Origin: a virus
Lineage: Duplodnaviria; Caudoviricetes
DNA: 62,071 nt
Direction: 5' to 3' (one strand)
Virus record (IMG/VR): IMGVR_UViG_3300025000_000102
Span: 1 to 62,071 of that record
Shown here: positions 2,394-60,404 of the stretch, one piece after another
How the letters are laid out: each line of letters opens with the position of its first letter
Numbering within the stretch: position 1 is the first letter of the stretch
Made by a program: the position numbers and the translations under genes
Notes under the pieces: generated by a model
What the model was told of the DNA's origin: nothing
Database searches by the model: none
Seen by the model: the letters and a program-made list of their open reading frames with translations, nothing else

Positions 2394-3656
2394 GTGAATC
2401 TAATCCAAAGAGCAAAGCTCTTATTCAATAACGGCTACTTCGAAGAATACGTCCGCAGATTCCAAGCGGGCGAAGACATGCCGGAAAGCGGTCACTCAGG
2501 CGTAGGGTCTGACACCGCCATGAAATATTCGGCGGTTTTTGCATGCTGTCGAGTCCTCGGGGAGACGTTCGCAAGCATGCCGGCCATGGAATACCGCAAG
2601 AGTCCTAACGGAGATAGGGAAACAACAAGAGACACAGCCGCCTTCGACATCCTACACAATGCTCCAAATGCTGAAATGGCACCGTTTAGTTTTAAGGAAT
2701 CCTGCATGATGAACCTAAATCTTGGTGGTAATGCAGTATCAGAGAGGCTTGTTAACAGGTTTGGGGACCTAGTGGGCCTGTATCCCTACAAATGGCAAAT
2801 GGTAGACATCGGCAGAGATTTGGAGACCAAGCAGCTCGTCTACACGGTGACAGATGGAGCAACACAGAAGAAGCTAAGACGAGATCAAGTATTTCATGTC
2901 CCTGGACTAAGTTTTGACGGGATTATTGGTCTATCTCCCATAGAGTACGCAGCAAATGCGATTACGCTGGGTAAGAGTTATGAGCAGTTTGGTGTTAACT
3001 TTTACAAAAACGGTGCGAACTCTTCCGGCGCGTTCAGCTTCCCTGGTGAGCTTGGGGAAGAATCGTTTCAAAGACTAAAGAAGGACCTGAAGGATAACTA
3101 TGCAGGCCTGAAAAACACAGGTACACCGATGTTGCTCGAAGGTGGCGGAGAGTTTAAGCAGTTTGCCATGAAACCTGCTGACGCCCAACTAATCGAGAAC
3201 AAGCGGTTCCAGGTCGAAGATGTTGCTCGGATGTATCGCACTCCGTTGCACTTGATCGGAGACTTGACTAGGTCCACGAATAACAATATTGAGCATCAAA
3301 GCTTAGAGTTTGTGATGTATACCATGTTGCCTTGGTTTAAGCGCTGGGAAGAGAACATCAATATGCAGTTACTCGCTCCGTCAGAGCGTAGGGCGGGGTA
3401 TTATATCGAGTTTAACGTTGCTGGTTTATTGCGAGGTGATGCAAAAAGCAGGGCTGAAGCTTATGCGGCAGGTCGCCAATGGGGTTGGCTTAGTGTTAAT
3501 GATATCCGGAAGCTTGAAAATATGCCACACATAGCCAATGGAGACATTTACCTACAACCTAGCAATATGATTGAGGCTGGTAAAGAGGTACAGGAAGCTG
3601 ACAAAAACAAAGGATTAGCAGAGGAAGTTTACAAAATGATTACCGAGAGGGGGTGA
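2394..3656 (+). CDS. HK97-family portal protein
   Basis: SAVFACCRVL, DGIIGLSPI, GWLSVNDIRKLEN motifs; follows terL. Confidence 0.95.
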   Translation: MNLIQRAKLLFNNGYFEEYVRRFQAGEDMPESGHSGVGSDTAMKYSAVFACCRVLGETFASMPAMEYRKSPNGDRETTRDTAAFDILHNAPNAEMAPFSFKESCMMNLNLGGNAVSERLVNRFGDLVGLYPYKWQMVDIGRDLETKQLVYTVTDGATQKKLRRDQVFHVPGLSFDGIIGLSPIEYAANAITLGKSYEQFGVNFYKNGANSSGAFSFPGELGEESFQRLKKDLKDNYAGLKNTGTPMLLEGGGEFKQFAMKPADAQLIENKRFQVEDVARMYRTPLHLIGDLTRSTNNNIEHQSLEFVMYTMLPWFKRWEENINMQLLAPSERRAGYYIEFNVAGLLRGDAKSRAEAYAAGRQWGWLSVNDIRKLENMPHIANGDIYLQPSNMIEAGKEVQEADKNKGLAEEVYKMITERG

Positions 3657-20450: not shown

Positions 20451-20461
20451 GACATGACTAG

Positions 20462-20491
20462 AGCCCCGGGCCGTAATGGTTCGGGGTTTTT
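20462..20491. terminator. Terminator at end of late transcript (convergent junction)
   Basis: GCCCCGGGCC-GTAAT-GGTTCGGGGT then T tract. Confidence 0.7.
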
Positions 20492-20522
20492 TGTGTTTGA
20501 CCATGGAGATTACTTAATTCCC

Positions 20523-20735
20523 TTATTCATCCCTCAGGCTTTTGACAAAGCCCTTCACTTTGTCAAACTCCTCCTCGTTGAGCCATATGGATCTTTGTTT
20601 ACGTCCCGTAGTCTTGCGTCCTGATCCTTCGCGCTTGCCTCCGTGCAGGGAGTTGCTTTGGCAATCTCTGCCGTAATTAACGAGGGAGCAAGTGGCGCAA
20701 TCTCCCTCGTTTTGCGTGCAGTAGTCTTTTACCAT
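20523..20735 (-). CDS. Cys-rich protein with GGxRxGxGRK and RHH-like C-terminus; probable operon regulator
   Basis: CX6CX2C...C then GGKREGSGRK and SIWLNEEEFDKVK. Confidence 0.6.
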   Translation of the reverse strand: MVKDYCTQNEGDCATCSLVNYGRDCQSNSLHGGKREGSGRKTTGRKQRSIWLNEEEFDKVKGFVKSLRDE

Positions 20736-20941
20736 ACTACTGCCTCCATTGCTTCCTTAAAGATTGGATCCACCGCTAGGATAACCTCATCAAATGTCTC
20801 GTGGTGCATGGTTACCTCGTATACTGTGACATCATGCCCGGCACGACCTGTTGACTCAAGACGTTCGCGCCAGTCAGCTCCGCAGACAATTTTATCCTCC
20901 TTGGTAATAGTCATGTTTTTGTGAGTCCTAATTTCTTTCAT
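20729..20941 (-). CDS. Small acidic hypothetical protein
   Basis: RBS within the conserved hairpin motif; overlaps next gene. Confidence 0.6.
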   Translation of the reverse strand: MKEIRTHKNMTITKEDKIVCGADWRERLESTGRAGHDVTVYEVTMHHETFDEVILAVDPIFKEAMEAVVW

Positions 20942-20949
20942 TCCAAAAC

Positions 20950-20992
20950 TTCCTTTCGTTTGCCGAGTATCGGCTCCCGGCTGGCCTTTGGA
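20950..20992 (-). repeat. Conserved intergenic hairpin+RBS motif, copy A
   Basis: Reverse complement CCAAAGGCCAGCCGGGAGCCGATACTCGGCAAACGAAAGGAA matches copies at 57459 and 57713. Confidence 0.8.
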
Positions 20993-20995
20993 TAA

Positions 20996-21436
20996 TTAGT
21001 ATGACATTGCTTCCTTAACTGAGTCGTAGTGCCTTTGATATCTCTGCTCCGCTTTTACTGATTTAGCAAACATTTCGTCCTTAACAGCCATAATCTCGGA
21101 GTACATATTTTCGGGTACTGGTACCAATGCTTGTTTGCTATTTAAAGTTAATTGTAGGTAGTGAACACCTTTGTGAGTCGTAAACATACTATTGTGCTCC
21201 GTTCCGTTTATGATCAGTTTCTCAATTTTAGCGTCTGCGGATACTGTTAATTCAACGTCCGCCCCTTTGGCGGTTGACCAAGCGTATGTCTTCATTGTCT
21301 TCGCTCCCTTTTTAGCGATTGCCCACAATGTCCGAAGCGCGAGAGCCAATCGAGCCACATAATCACCAACCATCTTACGTGCCATCTTGTGGGCCTCAAC
21401 CATCATTTCTCTCTTGTTCATTTTAATCTTCGTCAT
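20996..21436 (-). CDS. Hypothetical protein, first gene of strong-promoter operon
   Basis: ATG 21436 with AAGGGG RBS downstream of consensus promoter. Confidence 0.65.
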   Translation of the reverse strand: MTKIKMNKREMMVEAHKMARKMVGDYVARLALALRTLWAIAKKGAKTMKTYAWSTAKGADVELTVSADAKIEKLIINGTEHNSMFTTHKGVHYLQLTLNSKQALVPVPENMYSEIMAVKDEMFAKSVKAEQRYQRHYDSVKEAMSY

Positions 21437-21467
21437 TGTGCGCAACCCCTTTCTTTATCTTGATATA

Positions 21468-21512
21468 ATTATACTGCTTTTCAAGATGAAAGTCAATACT
21501 GCTTTTCAAGAT
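21468..21512 (-). promoter_or_regulatory. Sigma-A promoter overlapped by 17-bp direct-repeat operator
   Basis: TTGACT-17-TATAAT on minus strand; ATACTGCTTTTCAAGAT at 21471-21487 and 21496-21512. Confidence 0.8.
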
Positions 21513-21579
21513 TTTCATAATTATCTACATAAAAAAATCCCCGACTTTCGCCAGGGGACCTTTAGTACTCGCACTATAT

Positions 21580-21966
21580 CTATTTCAGCCCCATTTGAGC
21601 CTTGTTCATAAGCTTGTTGCCCTGGAACATCACGTTCGCGTTAGCTCCCAAGCTACCCTCGCCCTTATACGTATACATTACTGTGTGAGCATCTTCACCG
21701 GGAGACCCTGATTCAGACATAACTTCGCCTGGTCCTCCGATAATCTTAGTTGCCTCCTCGTATGTCATGCCGGATTTAAGTTGATCAAATTCAGCTTTTG
21801 TCATGGTTTGCTTGTTGGTTACTGGCGCAGGTTTAGGAGCAGGGGCAGACGCAGGGGTAGTCGTCGATGAGGTTGGCGATGGTGTCTCCTTTTTCGGTTC
21901 GGTAGATCCGCATCCTACCAGTGTGAATATAAGTCCAATGGATAATAGGTAAGCTAGTTTTTTCAT
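21580..21966 (-). CDS. Lipoprotein (DUF3862/BLIP-like), possible superinfection exclusion
   Basis: Lipobox LVGC, Pro/Thr linker, EFDQLKSGMTYEE...IIGGPG...NANVMFQ..KL..KAQ. Confidence 0.75.
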   Translation of the reverse strand: MKKLAYLLSIGLIFTLVGCGSTEPKKETPSPTSSTTTPASAPAPKPAPVTNKQTMTKAEFDQLKSGMTYEEATKIIGGPGEVMSESGSPGEDAHTVMYTYKGEGSLGANANVMFQGNKLMNKAQMGLK

Positions 21967-21984
21967 TGAGTTAACCTTCTTCCT

Positions 21985-22293
21985 TTAATTTGTTAACGCT
22001 TTTACTTTTGCGGCTATCGAATGGGACAGCTGCTCGTTATACCTATCGACGCGTCCCGTAATCAAGAAAAGCTCAATAAATGCGACTATTGAAGGGATAA
22101 AAGTCCAAACGAAAACAGTGTATAAAATTCCTAGTCCAATCCTACCCATGTAATAGTGATGTGCCCCTAGCCCTCCTAGGAATAGAGTGAGTAATAGGGC
22201 AGTGGTTCTGTTCTTCCTTACTTTGGCTGTCTCAGACTGGAACATCATGCGTTGGGAGTTGGTCATGTCGCTCTGAAGCATCAAATCATCCAA
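21985..22293 (-). CDS. TM2-domain membrane protein
   Basis: KNRTTALLL.LFLGGLGAHHYY.G...GILY..F.WT.IP. Confidence 0.85.
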   Translation of the reverse strand: MDDLMLQSDMTNSQRMMFQSETAKVRKNRTTALLLTLFLGGLGAHHYYMGRIGLGILYTVFVWTFIPSIVAFIELFLITGRVDRYNEQLSHSIAAKVKALTN

Positions 22294-22552
22294 TATCGAT
22301 CCCTTCCTTTCAAATATAATAATTTCAGCTTAGTATGGGATTTTCCTGCAACTCGACAGGATTAATGGTTTTGCGATAAGTTTTGCAATGATCGTTAACT
22401 TGGTCGTTGACTTGATCGTTACCTTAGTCGCTCAAACGACCACTGTACAAGCTAAAAACCGCATAAATCAAGCAAATATTTTCGGAAAGAGAGGGTAAGG
22501 GGGAGAGGATTAAAGGATTCCAAAGGGACAAGGAGTGGGGATGGGGGAGATT

Positions 22553-23134
22553 TTAAAAATAATTCGCGGGATCGACGCTTGTGCCGTTTTTCCTTATCTC
22601 AAAATGGAGGTGCGGTCCAGTTGAGTTACCAGTATTTCCACATGCCCCAATCTTAGTCCCCGCAATCACCTGGTAGCCAATCTTTACATACAATCCGCTT
22701 AGATGACCATAAAGGGATTCCATTCCCCCTCCGTGATCAACGACGATCATGTTTCCGTAGACATCACTCCATCCTACATTAACAACTTCCCCCTTCCTCG
22801 CAGCTCCCACAGGTGTTCCCTCGGGTGCTGCTATATCCATGCCGTGATGATCGTTTCTCTTAAATTCCTGAGACACAGTCCCTTTCATCGGCATCGTCCA
22901 TCCGCCTTGGCCAATACCTGCCACCCTGTTCGCTGTGTCCTGCAGGGAATCAACTCGCGCAGACCATCTCTCGATCACCGGGGTCAAATTCTGCATGGTA
23001 GTTAATAATACCAACATAGCAGCAACCATAATAACTAAGTTGGCGATCTGCTTGCGCTCAACCCCAATAAGAATAGAATACCCAACGAACGAAACAACGG
23101 CAATAAGTAGGAGATCGGCAATCCACTTTGCCAT
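22553..23134 (-). CDS. M23 (LytM) peptidase with SpoIIIAC/AD-like N-terminal 2-TM hairpin
   Basis: HHGMDIA, YGHLS, GNSTGPHLHFE zinc motifs; two N-terminal TM helices. Confidence 0.85.
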   Translation of the reverse strand: MAKWIADLLLIAVVSFVGYSILIGVERKQIANLVIMVAAMLVLLTTMQNLTPVIERWSARVDSLQDTANRVAGIGQGGWTMPMKGTVSQEFKRNDHHGMDIAAPEGTPVGAARKGEVVNVGWSDVYGNMIVVDHGGGMESLYGHLSGLYVKIGYQVIAGTKIGACGNTGNSTGPHLHFEIRKNGTSVDPANYF

Positions 23135-23137
23135 AAT

Positions 23138-23374
23138 TCACATCTTCCCAACGGTGAAGTCGAAAAACTTCGTAAGTAATTGCCAAGCTACCGATATAAC
23201 ACACAGGATAGCTGCAATCGTTGTCGCCGTTTTGATCATGGCTGAAATATGGCCCTTACCAATTGCGCCAGTGATCATCTCTGCAAGCCAAGATCCAACT
23301 CCCAGCATGACGAGGATTAAAATAACGAATCCTGGGGAACTAGGCCCGAATGCTGCGCCGGCTGCTGTTACCAT
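23138..23374 (-). CDS. Small 2-TM protein, SpoIIIAC/AD-like
   Basis: 78 aa; helix-GK-helix pattern resembling SpoIIIAC; AAGGAGG RBS. Confidence 0.55.
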   Translation of the reverse strand: MVTAAGAAFGPSSPGFVILILVMLGVGSWLAEMITGAIGKGHISAMIKTATTIAAILCVISVAWQLLTKFFDFTVGKM

Positions 23375-24017
23375 TTAGACATTCCTCCTTTATTCGTTGC
23401 AGGCTAAACACTTGAAACTCAAGGTTGTTGACGTTTTCCTTGGCGATCTTCTTCTGGATGGCATCGATTCTCCCTGTAGTCACAACACGGATCACAGGGA
23501 ATCGCTTAGTCAGTGGAACCCACCACATTTTCAGATACTCTCCAGATGCGTAGAACTCGTTGTAACGCCTGACCTTTTCGCCGAAATCGTGACCTGATTC
23601 CGCTATGTCAAACTCGGCGTAGAAAAACGAGAATGAGCTAGACCAAGTATTCTTGACACATATGAGGGCATCAGGCCTAAGGGTTTTATAAACCACTTCA
23701 CGCTCAAAACTGTGTAGGACCATTGCCGTAGAGAGCGAGGAGTTTACCCACGTATAAATCCACGAGACTCCCAAAACGTGCTCCAATTGACCTGGTTTCT
23801 TGTTGGCATAGTAATAGTATGGTTCGTCGATTGAGAGCCTTGAACGCTTTATTCTGCCTGTCTCTGTGAGTTTTTTTAATCTGCGCTGAACGATGCGAAG
23901 ACAAGTATCGTGGAATAACAGGAGTTTAATTTGATCGGTATTTAACGCGCTTTGAGTCTCCAATAGCCTGAATAACTCCTTATCGCGGTGGGAGCATTTT
24001 GCGTGATTGCTCAACAA
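23340..24017 (-). CDS. Replication-relaxation (Replic_Relax) family protein
   Basis: N-terminal winged helix (LNTDQI...RRLKKL), EH.L, RPDAL, FYAEFD...K...Y; downstream of FtsK. Confidence 0.75.
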   Translation of the reverse strand: MLSNHAKCSHRDKELFRLLETQSALNTDQIKLLLFHDTCLRIVQRRLKKLTETGRIKRSRLSIDEPYYYYANKKPGQLEHVLGVSWIYTWVNSSLSTAMVLHSFEREVVYKTLRPDALICVKNTWSSSFSFFYAEFDIAESGHDFGEKVRRYNEFYASGEYLKMWWVPLTKRFPVIRVVTTGRIDAIQKKIAKENVNNLEFQVFSLQRIKEECLNGNSSRRSIRA

Positions 24018-25107
24018 GGTTCATCACCTCGACTCGGTCAATATCTCTGAGTAATTTCCTAGCCTGTTTAATAGGTAGGTACATACCCTGCGTCTCAAGT
24101 TCGTTATCCCATTGATAGATTCCCCTGCCCGGGATAGAAGGGATGAGCGCGGCGTTTTCGTTATCTAGGAGCATCCTAGAGTTGATACCATCTCGGACGT
24201 GAAAACACATAGTGCCCGCGAACATCGCCTTACTGTCTCCGAACGCCTTCATCATGGTGCTGGAAGGCCTTTGAGTAGCGCATACTACACAGATTCCAGC
24301 GGCTCTACCGAGGCGTAGGATGCGATTTAAGGACGTTTGGCATTCCTCGTCGTGCATTTCTGCCAACTCATCAATTACGATCACTAGGAAGGGCATTTCG
24401 TGCCCCTGTTCGATATAATCTTGGATCTTAACGCATCCCTTAGATTCTAAGATATTTAGTCTTTTGTCGAGGTCTTTATTGATCGCATCGAATACGATGG
24501 GGGCTTTATCCTGATCTGTTACGAGCAGTACATGGTCCTTGAGGTATGAGTATTCTAGACGTTTAAAGTCGAAAACAACAGTACGAATCTCAGTTTTCTT
24601 ATTCAGTAATAACCCCATGATTAATCCGTGGATAAAATTACTCTTCCCGGCTCCCGGATGTCCGGCAATGATAAGATTCGGCATATCCGCAAGATCCTTG
24701 ACGACTTCCCCAATAGCTGAATGACCGAAGTGGATCGGGAGATATCCCTTGTGCTGAGATGGATCGAAAGAGTATGGGTATTCGCGCTTAATCTCCGTTG
24801 TTGACGCTTGCATAGTGATCACCTTACCTCTCTTCTCGACTTGCACTGTGCCACCCATGGCATCGGCAAAGAGTTGTTCCTTAGCCTTAAACTCCTTATA
24901 TCCGAGTCCTGGACCGAGGGATAGGATGAATCGGTAGGCTTCGCCTGTGAGTTTGATTTTCTTCAGGATCTTTGGCTTGGGATCTTTCGGCCATATCGCG
25001 TCGATAACGTCTTGTACTGCTGCATGGGCATCATTTCCTTTGCGATGCAGGAATAGGTATTTTAGTTGGTCGCGGACTTCTTCGATGACGTTTTGCTTTG
25101 CGGGCAT
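23980..25107 (-). CDS. FtsK/SpoIIIE-family ATPase (no TM domain)
   Basis: Walker A AGHPGAGKS, FDFK, Walker B IVIDELAE, GRAAGI..V.ATQRPS, IPGRG. Confidence 0.92.
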   Translation of the reverse strand: MPAKQNVIEEVRDQLKYLFLHRKGNDAHAAVQDVIDAIWPKDPKPKILKKIKLTGEAYRFILSLGPGLGYKEFKAKEQLFADAMGGTVQVEKRGKVITMQASTTEIKREYPYSFDPSQHKGYLPIHFGHSAIGEVVKDLADMPNLIIAGHPGAGKSNFIHGLIMGLLLNKKTEIRTVVFDFKRLEYSYLKDHVLLVTDQDKAPIVFDAINKDLDKRLNILESKGCVKIQDYIEQGHEMPFLVIVIDELAEMHDEECQTSLNRILRLGRAAGICVVCATQRPSSTMMKAFGDSKAMFAGTMCFHVRDGINSRMLLDNENAALIPSIPGRGIYQWDNELETQGMYLPIKQARKLLRDIDRVEVMNLVEQSRKMLPPR

Positions 25108-25111
25108 TGGT

Positions 25112-55765: not shown

Positions 55766-56275
55766 ATGTCCTACGAGTATTACATCACACCTCAGGAATA
55801 CGCCACGGCCCAGCAAAACGGCATTAGTTACTCCAGTGTATCTAACCGAGTACGTAACTTAGGGTGGACCGTAGAAAGAGCAATTACTGAACCATATCGG
55901 AAGACCAGGAGTCTTCTGGAGTGGAGAAAGATTGCCGATGCCAACGGGATAGGATACGAGGCATTTAGATCACGACTGCACAGAGGATGGAGTGTGGAGG
56001 ACGCAGCAACGAAGCCCGTATTTGACGTTGCAGTGCAGTGCAGGGAGCTATCTCAAAACCAGAGGAAGTATCAGGGGAAGCACATCGACGAAGCTCTAGA
56101 AAAGATCGGGATAACGTACGCGGTCTTCTCTCGAAGAATGAGAGATGGGTGGAATATGGAATTGGCTCTTAGTACCAAGAGAATGACCAAGTCCGAGGCG
56201 GCAAAGAAGGGACGCAGGGGATCGTATTGGACTCGCGGTCCGAGATTGTTAGGGAAGGAAGGGGTAAGGGTATGA
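55766..56275 (+). CDS. Repeated-HTH hypothetical protein
   Basis: Three NGI.Y....R...GW..E.A repeats. Confidence 0.7.
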   Translation: MSYEYYITPQEYATAQQNGISYSSVSNRVRNLGWTVERAITEPYRKTRSLLEWRKIADANGIGYEAFRSRLHRGWSVEDAATKPVFDVAVQCRELSQNQRKYQGKHIDEALEKIGITYAVFSRRMRDGWNMELALSTKRMTKSEAAKKGRRGSYWTRGPRLLGKEGVRV

Positions 56276-56373
56276 TGGATATGGAAGTCTGTCCAGAGTG
56301 CGGCAATCAACTACGACATGAGGGCGGCTGCGAGTGGTGCCCGGCGTGTGGGTATTCAGGATGTGACATATAG
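56272..56373 (+). CDS. 33-aa zinc-ribbon peptide
   Basis: CPECG...HEGGC..CP.CGYS.C; ATGA overlap; not in track. Confidence 0.6.
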   Translation: MMDMEVCPECGNQLRHEGGCEWCPACGYSGCDI

Positions 56374-56401
56374 ACGTAATTTAAAGTTAAAAGGAAGCCC
56401 G

Positions 56402-56566
56402 CTATTTATTCGTGGGCTTCCCATACTTATTCAATATTAATTCAATTGCCTCGTCTAGTAGTTTCGATTGTGGTATCCTAGTTTCTTTTGATAATTTTTT
56501 AAACCTTTCTACCAGTTCGTTATCCACCGAGTTTGTATACCTTTGCCTTTTCTTTAAATCTCCCAT
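56402..56566 (-). CDS. Ribbon-helix-helix protein
   Basis: MGDLKKRQRYTNSVDNEL...LSKETRIPQSKLLDEAIE; GAGGTG RBS; not in track. Confidence 0.75.
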   Translation of the reverse strand: MGDLKKRQRYTNSVDNELVERFKKLSKETRIPQSKLLDEAIELILNKYGKPTNK

Positions 56567-56989
56567 GTTATCACCTCAATTTTAGATTATATATTATACT
56601 TAATCTTAGTGCAACTTACGCAAGCTTATGGTATAATATACATAAAAGGAGATGTTTGTTTGTGGTGGAAGATTTGGTAGGAAAAAGATTTGCGAGACTT
56701 ATAGTTACAAGTAAATCTAGCCGAAAAAAAGGACCGTATTGGAACTGCATTTGTGACTGTGGAAAAGAGAAAGAAGTACTTAATTATTTTGGCTATTCGG
56801 ATTAACGTGTTTAACTGATTAATACTCATAAATGTATACCATAGTTGTAGAACGGATTATCGTGTTGAAACCTTATCAAGTACATCACCCCTTTCATGTG
56901 TTTATAATTCGGATTAGTGTGTTGATGCACCACTTTCATTAGTGGTGTTTTTAATTGAAAAATAAACTTGAAATATCCCCTTTTACCCC

Positions 56990-57018
56990 TTTACATGTAA
57001 TGCAATTTGCAGTACAAT
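56990..57018 (+). promoter_or_regulatory. Sigma-A promoter for cargo operon with TGTAATGCAAT operator
   Basis: TTTACA-17-TACAAT; operator repeated at 58054-58064. Confidence 0.65.
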
Positions 57019-57052
57019 AGTATTAGGAGATGAAGTTGAGGGGGAAAACAAA

Positions 57053-57457
57053 ATGAAAAAGCAAACCACGAGAAAATTAGAAGATACGAGTTGGTTAGCC
57101 CAAATCATTCGAGATAAAATGGACGTTGAATTTGAGAAAAACCTTGGGTCTCCTCGTTATCACGCTTTACAAACCTTACACATTATTGTCAACGAAGCAG
57201 ACGATCAAGATAATCCAAACATCTACTACGACACCTACAACCGTAAACGGTCAATTACAATTTGCGAAATACCATCACTTATGAAGCATGGTTATGACTT
57301 TGACACAAACGGAATGCAATGCAAGCTCAGAGGACTTGCGGAGCGTTACACGGACGATGACGGAATGTACATTGTATCAGTACTAACAACCAACGACTTA
57401 AACAGTGCCATGATAAAGGATTTAGAAGAACTGATGTACCAACTCGGAACTCACTAA
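57053..57457 (+). CDS. IS cargo hypothetical protein 1
   Basis: GAGGGGG RBS, 134 aa. Confidence 0.7.
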   Translation: MKKQTTRKLEDTSWLAQIIRDKMDVEFEKNLGSPRYHALQTLHIIVNEADDQDNPNIYYDTYNRKRSITICEIPSLMKHGYDFDTNGMQCKLRGLAERYTDDDGMYIVSVLTTNDLNSAMIKDLEELMYQLGTH

Positions 57458-57458
57458 G

Positions 57459-57500
57459 CCCAAAAGGCCAGCCGGGAGCCAATACCCGGCAATGAGGAGG
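57459..57500 (+). repeat. Conserved intergenic hairpin+RBS motif, copy B
   Basis: CCAAAAGGCCAGCCGGGAGCCAATACCCGGCAATGAGGAGG. Confidence 0.85.
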
Positions 57501-57508
57501 GAACGAAG

Positions 57509-57712
57509 ATGGATGAGTTAGATGTTTGCGAGTGTGATATTTGTGGAAGGGTTTGGGATGTACAATTTCTAACCACCTATAGTCAAAAAGATTGGTTCAC
57601 TAATCCCAGGAAACATGGTTCACTTCGAGTGTGTGAGGAATGTGATACCGCCAGTGTAGCAACTGAGGGTGGTTATGAGATCGAGTATGACGGGACTATT
57701 TGGAACCAATAA
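57509..57712 (+). CDS. IS cargo protein 2 (acidic, CxxC pairs)
   Basis: CDIC...CEEC; AGGAGG RBS. Confidence 0.65.
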   Translation: MDELDVCECDICGRVWDVQFLTTYSQKDWFTNPRKHGSLRVCEECDTASVATEGGYEIEYDGTIWNQ

Positions 57713-57756
57713 CCCAAAGGCTAGCCGGGAGCCTCATACCCGGCAAATGAAAGGAG
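57713..57756 (+). repeat. Conserved intergenic hairpin+RBS motif, copy C
   Basis: CCCAAAGGCTAGCCGGGAGCCTCATACCCGGCAAATGAAAGGAG. Confidence 0.85.
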
Positions 57757-57764
57757 TTTTCAAA

Positions 57765-58016
57765 GTGTTTGAAGTATACATAGGTTCACACGACACTATG
57801 GGAAAAATCGCCCAACGTGGGGCTACTGGGCTAAATCGCAAAACCATGAGATACCAAGTCATTGACAAGACCGCGAAATACAGCATCGTTGATACTTGCC
57901 ACAAGGACTGTGTAAGTTACAGTGATTGTCAGGCTAAGGGTCACTCTCCTTGTGCCACCCTTTACAGCGACAAGGACTTAAGGGCAATTGCCAAGGAGAA
58001 GGGGTTAATAATGTAA
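57765..58016 (+). CDS. IS cargo protein 3 (Cys-containing)
   Basis: GTG start after AAGGAG; CX3CX4CX6C. Confidence 0.6.
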   Translation: MFEVYIGSHDTMGKIAQRGATGLNRKTMRYQVIDKTAKYSIVDTCHKDCVSYSDCQAKGHSPCATLYSDKDLRAIAKEKGLIM

Positions 58017-58102
58017 GGCATCCCTAAGGGCTAGTCCCTATTGCCTATTAAGTTGTAATGCAATATGCTATAGAAAAGGCTGGCGCAGGGGAGAGGAACT
58101 AA

Positions 58103-58285
58103 ATGTCATCACCTAACGAAGGTAAGTCCACCATCAATATCCGTTGCACACCAGAGGAGCATGAGACTATCACTAAGAAGGCTAAATCGTACGGCATGAG
58201 TATCAGTGAGTATGTGAGGTTCGTCAGCTTATACGCTAAAATATCAGTAACCGCACACAAGAAGGCATCAGGAGAAACAAGTTAA
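58103..58285 (+). CDS. IS cargo RHH (MobC/CopG-like) regulator
   Basis: TINIRCTPEEH..I..KA...GMSISEYVR; own promoter TTGCCT-17-TATGCT at 58041-58069. Confidence 0.8.
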   Translation: MSSPNEGKSTINIRCTPEEHETITKKAKSYGMSISEYVRFVSLYAKISVTAHKKASGETS

Positions 58286-58361
58286 TAACAATAGGATTAT
58301 CGTGTTGAAGTCCCCTTCTTTTCCGTGGTACAATTAGTCACGTTAGAGGAGGGGCTTTTAC

Positions 58362-59723
58362 ATGAACATACTAAACATCGAAGAATTAACTGTACTAGAG
58401 ATCAAGGAAGATCGTGACTATTTCATAGTGGCGGAGATGGCTTCTCCGCCTTCTTACTGTCCTCACTGTGGCTGTGTGCCCAATCTACAGGGGTTCGGTG
58501 GTAAGACACAACTAATCATGGATACGCCTTCTCATGGTAAGCGTGTAGGTATTTCCTTGCGTCGCAAGCGTTATCGTTGTAAGGAGTGTACTAGGACTTT
58601 CATGGAGCCGTTAAAGTTTGTTGATGAAAGCCGTTCAATGACTAAACGGTTGGTGGAATATATCGAGAAGCAATCCTTAAAGCGTACCTTCACTAGCCTT
58701 AGCGAAGAAATAGGACTTGACGAGAAGACTATCCGCAACGTATTTAAGGACTATGCCAAAGAGCTTGAGAAGCACCTTCACTTCGCCACACCTGTCTGGC
58801 TGGGCATTGACGAAGCCCATCTACTACACAACTTCCGCTGCGTCATATCTAACGTCAAGGATAAGACAATCCTTGAGATGCTAAAGGAACGCAGTAAGCC
58901 AACAGTGATTAGTTACCTTAGCCGTTTGCCGGATAAGGACAGGGTCGAGATAGTGTGTATGGATATGTGGCAACCATACCGGGATGCTGCTAACGCAACA
59001 CTTCCTCATGCCAAGGTAGTGATAGACAAGTTTCATGTGGTTAAAGGAGCCAGCATAGCCCTAGAGGGTATTCGTAAGTCGATACGGCAAGGGCTGACCG
59101 ATAAGCAGCGTAAGACCTTAATGCATGATCGGTTCACTCTCCTTAAACGCAAGTCATCATTAAAACCATTCGAACAAATGAAGTTGGAGTCATGGACAGC
59201 TAACTATCCCGAATTGGGATTGGCATATAAGCTCAAGGAAGACTTCTATGAGATCTTTGACGATAGCAAAGACAGGTATGAAGCGTATGATCGTTACCAG
59301 GCGTGGAAAGGTGAAATGCCATCGTCTATGGTGCCTCATTTTGAGCCTCTAATGACTTCAATGAGGAATTGGGAGCCTGAGATACTTAACTACTTCGAAC
59401 TGCCAAGCAAGCGTGCCACGAACGCTTACACTGAGGCATTAAACGGATTGATCAAGATTGTTAACAGAAATGGTCGTGGGTACTCATTCGATGTCCTTAG
59501 GGCCAAAATACTGTTTACGGAAGGAGTTCAAAAGGTGAAGAGGAATAACTATAAGCACAAGGATACTGATGTTGTTGCTGAGGTTGGCGCCAACATTGCT
59601 GATGGCGACCTAGAGAGTATAGTTCAATACATGTTGGAAAACTTTGATCGGAACCCTGGTGAGACCTTTTCAACACTCACCCAAGATATGACGGATGAAG
59701 AGAAGGAACTGTTTTCAACATGA
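58362..59723 (+). CDS. ISL3-family transposase
   Basis: CPHCG/CKEC zinc finger, LGIDE, CMDM, IDKFHV, TNAYTEALNG.IK...R.GRGY. Confidence 0.95.
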   Translation: MNILNIEELTVLEIKEDRDYFIVAEMASPPSYCPHCGCVPNLQGFGGKTQLIMDTPSHGKRVGISLRRKRYRCKECTRTFMEPLKFVDESRSMTKRLVEYIEKQSLKRTFTSLSEEIGLDEKTIRNVFKDYAKELEKHLHFATPVWLGIDEAHLLHNFRCVISNVKDKTILEMLKERSKPTVISYLSRLPDKDRVEIVCMDMWQPYRDAANATLPHAKVVIDKFHVVKGASIALEGIRKSIRQGLTDKQRKTLMHDRFTLLKRKSSLKPFEQMKLESWTANYPELGLAYKLKEDFYEIFDDSKDRYEAYDRYQAWKGEMPSSMVPHFEPLMTSMRNWEPEILNYFELPSKRATNAYTEALNGLIKIVNRNGRGYSFDVLRAKILFTEGVQKVKRNNYKHKDTDVVAEVGANIADGDLESIVQYMLENFDRNPGETFSTLTQDMTDEEKELFST

Positions 59724-60404
59724 TAATCCGATTACCCATTATTTTTTGCATAGCGGAAGAACTAAGAGTTGCGGTTGCTATAATATCGAGCGATTGAAGT
59801 CATACGGGCATTCATGTAAGCAAGATAATCCAAAATCTCATACTAGAATGTATAGCATATGGAATGGCATGAAGGATAGGTGTCTGAATCCTAATAATGA
59901 TAGATACTATGATTATGGGGGTAGAGGGATAACTTTATGCGACAAATGGTTATCATTTGACGGTTTTTACGAGGATATGAAGGAAGGTTACGATGATCTC
60001 CTTACTATCGACAGGATAGAAAACGACAAAGGTTATTCCTTGGATAATTGTAAATGGTCCACGAACGAAGAACAGTCAAACAATAAACGCACTAATCTGA
60101 AATTGACCTTTAACGGAGAAACTAAAACAGCGAAAGAATTTTGCCAAATATTCAATATCAACGAGGATACATTAAGGTCTAGATTAAAGAGAGGGTGGAG
60201 CCTAGAGAGGGCATTAACTTGTAACTCAAAAGTATGTAAATCTCCTCGTGATTTAAGCGAAAAAATTCAATGTGCTTGTGGTTGTGGAGAGGTAATTGGT
60301 AGATTTGATAGGTATGGTAGGGAAAGAAGGTTTATATCTGGTCATAACGGAAGGAAAATGTAGATCAATAATATTCGCCGTGTAAGTGAGGAGGAGGGGT
60401 TAGT

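Follow-up and report, generated by a model that had tools for sequence, protein, structure and literature searches.

The stretch of DNA analyzed here, referred to as the window, is a linear virus record of 62,071 bases from IMG/VR, with a completeness estimate of 86%, whose DNA is present in groundwater metagenome runs. From its genes it looks like a temperate phage whose host is of Bacillota type. Our subject is an element of some 25–35 nt that occurs in it three times (copies A, B and C; Table 1), and which is predicted to fold into an RNA pseudoknot. Copies A and B belong to a plus-strand array of four small open reading frames (ORFs), carried by a transposable unit of the ISL3 type, and copy C to a small three-gene operon on the minus strand. 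The original prediction, made from the letters of the window, had placed copies at 57459, at 57713 and at 20950–20992 of the minus strand, each one between a stop codon and the next start, and on both counts it was right. The 17-mer AAGGCYAGCCGGGAGCC has exactly three matches in the window (mean of 0.20 in 100 shuffles, none of which reached 3), and a covariance model (R1), built from 35 instances and run over the whole window with filters off, returned only copies A, B and C, with the next best hit at 8.3 bits. A 23-mer pattern with a fixed 2-nt loop was discarded, as it found copy B only, because loop length varies.

Table 1. Position of the pseudoknot copies and of the associated features in the window.
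Feature	Position	Strand	Remarks
Pseudoknot copy A	57466..57490	+	covariance model 44.9 bits
Copy A, stem 1	57466-57468 with 57478-57480	+	GGC with GCC
Copy A, stem 2	57471-57476 with 57485-57490	+	GCCGGG with CCCGGC
Pseudoknot copy B	57719..57744	+	covariance model 45.1 bits; GGCU variant
Pseudoknot copy C	20962..20986	-	covariance model 42.1 bits
Possible decayed fourth copy	58021..58036	+	alignment only; without stem 2; missed by covariance model
Plus-strand array	57053..58285	+	four small ORFs
Promoter-like TTTACA-17-TACAAT	56990-57018	+	ahead of plus-strand array; 10/12 consensus match only
ORF134	57053-57457	+	
ORF67	57509-57712	+	
ORF83	57765-58016	+	
NikA-like RHH gene	58103-58285	+	
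ISL3-type transposable unit	56790..59737	+	2,948 bp; carries plus-strand array
Inverted repeats of ISL3-type unit	outer left 56790-56814; right 59714-59738		
8-bp direct repeats ATTATTTT	56782-56789 and 59738-59745		flank ISL3-type unit
Inner left repeat	58290-58309		
Minimal insertion sequence	58290-59737		holds ISL3 transposase, 58362-59723
Minus-strand small operon	20523..21496	-	promoter-like site, ORF149, pseudoknot C, two ORF70
Promoter-like TTGACT-17-TATAAT	21496-21468	-	11/12 consensus match only
ORF149	20996-21445	-	
ORF70	20729-20941	-	
ORF70	20523-20735	-	
Terminator-like hairpin	20460-20490		minus-strand small operon
Holin and endolysin	18.4-19.6 kb		
Large serine integrase, ImmA-like protease, repressor	27-30 kb		

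The three copies share the same layout, as all of them are in sense orientation to the neighbouring genes and lie between a stop codon and the next ribosome-binding site. First, copy A begins 8 nt after the TAA of ORF134 (57455–57457) and is followed, 18 nt past the knot, by the ATG of ORF67 at 57509. Second, copy B begins 6 nt after the TAA of ORF67 (57710–57712), and the downstream start is the GTG at 57765 (or the ATG at 57747), with a Shine-Dalgarno-like AAAGGAG at 57750–57756. Third, copy C starts 9 nt after the TAA of ORF149 (20998–20996), and the ATG at 20941 lies 20 nt past it. In both arrays the first gene after the promoter-like site is without a knot. A possible fourth copy, in decay, is suggested by CCCTAAGGGCTAG, which follows the stop of ORF83 in the gap before the RHH gene (58017–58102), and which is similar to the 5' portion of copy B and equally spaced from the stop codon.

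When all instances are considered, the consensus is N6-GGC-CA-GCCGGG-A-GCC-N22-(0-9 nt)-(A)AU-CCCGGC-A, with two stems: stem 1, of 3–4 pairs, joins the 5' GGC with the GCC of the hairpin loop, and stem 2 is the six-pair GCCGGG/CCCGGC. The predicted stem GCCGGG/CYCGGC is indeed kept, but the G-U pair that had been assigned to copy A sits in the minus-strand copy C (CUCGGC). To evaluate the fold, we used an alignment of 66 matches (61 distinct rows), numbered such that stem 1 is 6-9:19-22 and stem 2 is 12-17:34-39. Among the 61 distinct rows, 98.9% of the cells are paired with 7-9:19-21 and 12-17:34-39, and one-sided changes to G-U or U-G (13) outnumber C:A cells (3). As such G-U changes would be A:C on the opposite strand, the sense strand is favoured. 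Double changes occur in both stems, namely, at 7:21 (A-U in locus L022 and C-G in L149; loci are given by such numbers hereafter) and at 15:36 (C-G in L380).

The cleanest test is provided by pair 6:22, because the other stem columns were largely fixed by our search patterns, whereas this pair lies just outside every one of them. It is found as A-U in 16 rows, C-G in 15, U-A in five and G-U in one, and it is unpaired in 23. In 33 family representatives it is paired in 23, against a shuffle mean of 11.1 and with none of 20,000 shuffles reaching 23. When the set is widened to 46 representatives, a few of them probably chance matches, it is paired in 26 against 16.7 (p 0.0009), and slid controls in these 46 gave nine pairs for 6:23, 21 for 5:22 and 19 for 4:22. 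In copy B, this fourth pair of stem 1 is formed by A57718 and U57734. A noisy metagenome scan that excluded G8 was used for the tally of 8:20 only, since its 46 distinct hits are mostly chance matches in GC-rich coding sequence, which a coding/non-coding filter failed to set apart: C8 goes with G20 in 12 of 21, and A8 or T8 with G20 in five of 25 (Fisher p 0.014), while in three of the four C8:C20 cases GGC is in fact present and the first loop is longer by one base.

Several observations weigh against this fold, and they have to be stated. The slid control 5:22 is still paired in 21 of the 46 representatives, and pair 5:23 is without signal. Stem 1 is short, and its fourth pair is not formed in copies A and C, which have A:A and A:G there. 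Most columns are near-invariant, so the covariation rests on few positions. Moreover, single-sequence folding of the three copies is no better than that of shuffles (z of −1.08, −0.21 and −1.45), and the case for the structure therefore rests on comparison with other instances. RNAalifold, in turn, prefers a weak nested alternative, 8-10:37-39 plus 15-17:34-36, at −5.4 kcal/mol. Nonetheless, sequence comparison gives good support to the folding of a single strand into the H-type topology: there are two stems, the loop bases pair outside the hairpin, covariation extends to the stem formed by the upstream GGC and the loop GCC, as had been proposed, and the loop lengths of 2, 1 and at least 2 nt are ones that we take to be compatible with this class. 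The sense-strand G-U pattern and the compensatory changes in both stems thus sustain the structured-RNA half of the original prediction, for which a lack of covariation would have counted as refutation. Such covariation cannot be explained by a double-stranded DNA site.

The element was then compared with known RNA families. Rfam 15, searched over the whole window at gathering thresholds, gave no match, and so no family described there accounts for it. With E up to 10, the region 57400–57800 returned the L31-Coriobacteria leader and RAGATH-11 only, both below threshold and both rejected (16.6 bits against a cut-off of 33, and 21.9 bits against 79.4, the latter on the strand opposite to copy B). 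RAGATH-11 is a motif class found near ribozymes, and this weak partial match is what would speak for the element being, or belonging to, a tiny RNA with self-cleaving or other catalytic activity. Yet the match replaces 51 model positions by 4 bases, besides being on the wrong strand and far below threshold. Conservation, moreover, is limited to a core of ~25–35 nt, and we see a catalytic RNA as extremely unlikely.

Searches of the literature found the 12-mer CAGCCGGGAGCC in unrelated papers only, nothing on RAGATH-11, and nothing specific for the combination of pseudoknot, stop codon and phage. A candidate mimicry of the 530-loop pseudoknot of 16S ribosomal RNA, as both have GGC...AGCC with pairing between the upstream GGC and the GCC of the AGCC loop, was also discarded: our motif model scores this region of Escherichia coli rrsH (L395, 575–610) at −0.1 bits, so the likeness is topological only. 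With a probability of roughly 85%, we regard the element as an intercistronic RNA pseudoknot that is conserved among phages and other mobile elements and had not been catalogued before. It may nevertheless be among the 8,495 unnamed candidate RNAs that, in the excerpt cited, Fremin et al. (2023) predicted from IMG/VR (PMC10690425).

Rfam searches on ten other motif loci gave as sole match a permuted transfer-messenger RNA (tmRNA; RF04321, 65.8 bits), located at 2826–3142 of viral contig L362. Its pseudoknot, 10 nt after the second stop of the tag ORF, agrees with our element in stem 2 and in the junction letters. It differs in having a stem 1 of six pairs, in the same register and with other letters, and in being part of a tmRNA rather than intercistronic.

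The motif is found elsewhere, both in IMG/VR stretches and in bacterial genomes, as the original prediction had proposed to check. Its canonical form occurs in 59 IMG/VR stretches (specific pattern, complete list; an earlier scan with a 15-mer had chance matches mixed in), and the loop type of the window, AUACCCGGC, in nine other stretches. Copies in genomes were found on chromosomal contigs of two cultured Bacillota, Neobacillus pocheonensis NRS-386 (two, 380 nt apart) and Kroppenstedtia guangzhouensis CGMCC 1.12404, and in a metagenome-assembled genome of the Acidobacteriaceae (Acidobacteriota); a soil metagenome contig has just the 37-nt motif, in another context. When 13 motif loci were compared with the window by blastn, nine shared just the motif (27–49 nt), L016, L305 and L042 gave no match at the E-value limit used, and only L033 shared more, namely, part of the gene upstream of copy C. 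Since 12 of the 13 loci share with the window either the motif or nothing, the element stands on its own and does not belong to a conserved block of genes.

Other searches were less productive. Among cultured phages, blastn with the 1.5-kb region gave no match, and a 46-nt canonical copy gave 11 weak partial matches inside genes, none covering 80%; the plasmid collection gave no match. A loose pattern on genome contigs yielded 120 rows, most of them chance matches in high-GC coding DNA, with L247, L305 and L319 alone looking real, and a viral scan with stem 2 by itself returned mostly terminators and chance hairpins. Genes for 16S ribosomal RNA were not found in three host drafts.

Regarding the genomic context of copies A and B, the original prediction of insertion-sequence cargo holds. 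The plus-strand array lies inside a unit with inverted repeats and 8-bp target duplications, which interrupts a phage HNH endonuclease gene; the pieces of this gene (56662–56789 and from 59738) match phrog_374 at adjoining profile positions, 194–233 and 238–397. These three features together identify the array as cargo. Outer and inner left repeats point to two nested elements, and more repeat-like copies are seen at ~56850–56870 and 56908–56926. An Arc-like repressor gene (56402–56566, minus strand; phrog_3180, E 3.5e-17) lies, in divergent orientation, just upstream of the interrupted HNH gene. Within the array, ORF134, ORF67 and ORF83 have no family match, and the last gene is the NikA-like RHH gene (E 1.4e-14).

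Copy C is found in a different setting. On the minus strand, the region 20500–25110, placed between the lysis module and that of the serine integrase, has genes for FtsK/SpoIIIE-like, Rep, M23 peptidase, TM2 and DUF3862 lipoprotein products, a set that resembles a small conjugative or mobilisable module carried by the phage, and the three-gene operon comes after them. The last ORF of this operon has no Pfam family even at E 5. Hence the claim that the arrays end in an RHH-like gene applies to the plus-strand array but not to the minus-strand one. As for the strong sigma-A promoters said to begin them, promoter-like sites do lead both arrays, as consensus matches only.

The genes next to the motif were compared at large. 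The 52 downstream and 49 upstream proteins are mutually unrelated (mean column identity 7%), and the element therefore serves no particular gene family. Pfam names six families downstream, RHH_3 (2), DarA_C (1 of 52), DUF5983, STIV B116-like, radical SAM and sigma-70 region 4, and five upstream, ArdC-N with a metallopeptidase (2 of 49), RadC (1), Prok-JAB and a major capsid protein; L305 has DUF5983 and DUF3560. The named neighbours lean towards accessory and anti-restriction genes of mobile elements. It is thus conceivable, albeit quite unlikely, that the motif is a protein binding site or decoy, for a translational regulator or RNase of phage or host, or for a defence or toxin protein of the host, titrated by the mobile element as with RNA antitoxins and RNA anti-CRISPRs. 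Near-invariant sequence in unrelated elements does suggest recognition of bases and not of shape alone, and ArdC-N with metallopeptidase, RadC, DarA_C, and DUF5983 with DUF3560 are neighbours of the anti-restriction or anti-defence type. However, no protein family recurs beside the motif, the window shares no gene with the other loci except L033, and occurrence in at least two phyla would demand a very conserved partner. Copies are also single and intercistronic, not tandem: no ToxI-like tandem array was found in 56000–60000, where the copies are separated by ORFs, the neighbours not having been scanned against a defence library.

Homology between loci frequently breaks at the motif. L088 and L372 have 399 nt in common upstream (86%) and nothing downstream; L372 and L379 have ~395 nt in common downstream (89%), starting 6–8 nt past the motif, and nothing upstream; L025 and L379 have in common the upstream side only; and in the GCACCCAAU family identity changes from ~0.45 to 0.87–0.91 at position −8. 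Overall, eight locus pairs are similar upstream only, 18 downstream only and 70 on both sides. These joints, together with L033 and the window, whose similarity is confined to the upstream gene, could be taken to mean that the motif is primarily a recombination or linker site at the DNA level, perhaps folded as single-stranded DNA as in attC, for the exchange of cassettes, with RNA structure as a secondary trait. Its location in mobile contexts (the cargo of an ISL3 unit, and an operon next to genes for Rep and an FtsK-like protein) and a constant short stop distance, as expected of a cassette boundary, point in the same direction. We nevertheless consider this unlikely. The covariation of 6:22 and the G-U pattern require a folded sense single strand; 25 identical bases are enough for ordinary homologous exchange, which could equally explain the mosaic joints; and joints at gene boundaries are common in phages without any site. 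No recombinase family recurs by the motif, and a search of the window, at its 86% completeness, with PF00589 found no tyrosine recombinase. A pseudoknot is not known to be a recombinase substrate. Thus, of the gene-cassette system originally suggested, the varying flanks and the breakpoints at the motif were found, but a recombinase-driven system was not.

Two known systems are close to this possibility. The attC sites of integrons are structured, follow directly after the stop of a cassette, occur in arrays of small unrelated ORFs and keep their structure by covariation, all of which they share with the motif. They are, however, imperfect hairpins of several times its length, which the IntI integrase encoded next to them recombines, whereas the motif is a 25–35-nt pseudoknot of the sense strand. 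The window, as said, has no PF00589 match, and the other loci were not searched for IntI. The PeSLs of T4-type phages are, in the text cited, short conserved intergenic stem-loop elements between small non-essential ORFs of variable regions, and recombination between their copies, through ordinary homologous exchange, shuffles genes (PMC2839356). As described there, a PeSL combines a sigma-70-like promoter with a terminator stem-loop, whereas the motif has neither promoter hexamers nor a U-tract, and it is a pseudoknot inside an operon, in 1–3 copies, of unrelated elements from at least two phyla. Accordingly, a scan of 56200–60000 found no promoter-like site on the motif, and no T-run follows stem 2 on the sense strand.

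The distance of the motif from the upstream stop is informative. An upstream ORF of 40 codons or more is present in 55 instances, and the motif is sense to it in all of them. In these, the end of the stop codon is separated from G7 by 7 nt in 14, 8 nt in 13, 6 nt in seven and 9 nt in seven, such that 6–9 nt accounts for 41 of 55; the stops are TAA (29), TAG (15) and TGA (11). In de-duplicated representatives the same range holds 31 of 52, six being no more than 5 nt away and 15 no less than 10 nt away. The next start is found 11–31 nt past stem 2 in 46 of 52, usually after a purine-rich Shine-Dalgarno tract that lies directly 3' of the knot. On GC-rich contigs (L076, L078, L027, L113, the L017 family, L408 and L434) the ATG is preceded by a C/U-rich, G-poor leader of 22–35 nt that has no Shine-Dalgarno sequence, and some of these leaders contain ACCUCC, like the anti-Shine-Dalgarno itself.

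This spacing agrees with the 5–9 nt distance used to recognize a stimulatory pseudoknot, which is classically located 6–9 nt downstream of the site of recoding and, like the motif, is compact and GC-rich. The motif might then act on the terminating ribosome by causing read-through of the stop, frameshifting close to it, or stalling with subsequent cleavage of the mRNA where the upstream gene ends; and for copies A and C the downstream ORF is indeed in frame with the upstream one, the frame being open between them. Across instances this pattern does not hold. Of 52 instances, 24 have the downstream ORF in frame 0, and only 16 have it in frame 0 with an open frame, many from one family, while the in-frame extension ends after 1–5 codons in L385, L393, copy B of the window, L022, L036 and L032. 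All three stops are used, without a conserved slippery or leaky-stop context. Fusion by read-through or frameshift was consequently rejected, as there is no consistent extended frame, nor was a shift site found of the kind that recoding pseudoknots have, and we see recoding or processing as very unlikely.

Our preferred interpretation, which we infer from these features and to which we grant somewhat less than even odds, is that the element would act in cis at the junction between cistrons, in concert with the ribosome and the machinery of mRNA decay, with gene shuffling as a by-product. Some 6–7 bases past the A-site codon lie within the mRNA channel of the ribosome, and the near-empty zone below 6 nt, with a peak just above, fits a structure placed at the entrance of the terminating ribosome and not unwound by it. 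The knot would sit on the polycistronic mRNA between two cistrons, about at this entrance, with its 3' end at the 5' edge of the next translation-initiation region. It would stay folded during translation of the upstream gene and work with the ribosome at the junction, where, as a standby or re-initiation site, it may retain or take up the small subunit on behalf of the small gene that follows. Further roles could be to insulate the region around the downstream start and, as a cap, to shield the mRNA from exonucleases. As DNA, the motif may serve as a short homology patch for gene swaps, because ~25 bases are near-identical in unrelated elements.

Some of our data fit this proposal poorly. The motif lies less than 6 nt from the stop in four of 55 instances and 11–42 nt away in ten; the arrangement with a knot-less first gene was seen in just two operons; and conservation is stricter than a barrier or insulator needs, which suggests a specific partner. 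Given that the motif is seen with and without Shine-Dalgarno sequences, and that at least two phyla have it, our first guess is a universal partner, for example the ribosome. Thus, it is tempting to speculate, although we hold this to be doubtful, that the knot is a portable starter of cistrons, which during termination would contact the small subunit where the mRNA enters, at a site that is conserved universally, and would hand the subunit to the next start. It would be a bacterial counterpart of viral termination-reinitiation elements, or of elements like internal ribosome entry sites, and this would explain function with or without a Shine-Dalgarno sequence and across phyla. If true, the identical DNA would also let mobile elements trade small accessory genes.

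Phage elements near translation starts provide further comparison. The SAS and ESAS of Cluster K mycobacteriophages are, in the text cited, likewise asymmetric, of one orientation and upstream of unrelated non-structural starts; the ESAS adds an upstream inverted repeat, and a role in translation initiation is suspected (PMC3203893). As given there, the SAS is the 13-mer GGGATAGGAGCCC, with a Shine-Dalgarno core 3–7 bp from the start, the ESAS arms are of 17 bp, and the distribution is that of one phage cluster. The motif, in which that 13-mer is absent, differs in being separate from the Shine-Dalgarno sequence, 11–31 nt from the start, tied to the upstream stop and supported as a pseudoknot by covariation. 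The translational operator of T4 gene 32, in turn, is an H-type pseudoknot at the 5' side of an initiation region; in the excerpt cited (PMC10690425) it belongs to one gene and is bound by the product of that gene, whereas the motif precedes unrelated genes.

Accessory regions of phages and mobile elements are rich in small genes whose expression and exchange are poorly understood, and the element offers a handle on translation and mRNA handling at gene junctions, while it marks places of gene swapping. If it acts through the ribosome, it would represent a compact and host-independent part for the building of operons; should a defence protein be its partner, the knot would amount to a new counter-defence made of RNA. 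The copies in N. pocheonensis and K. guangzhouensis make the element testable in culture.

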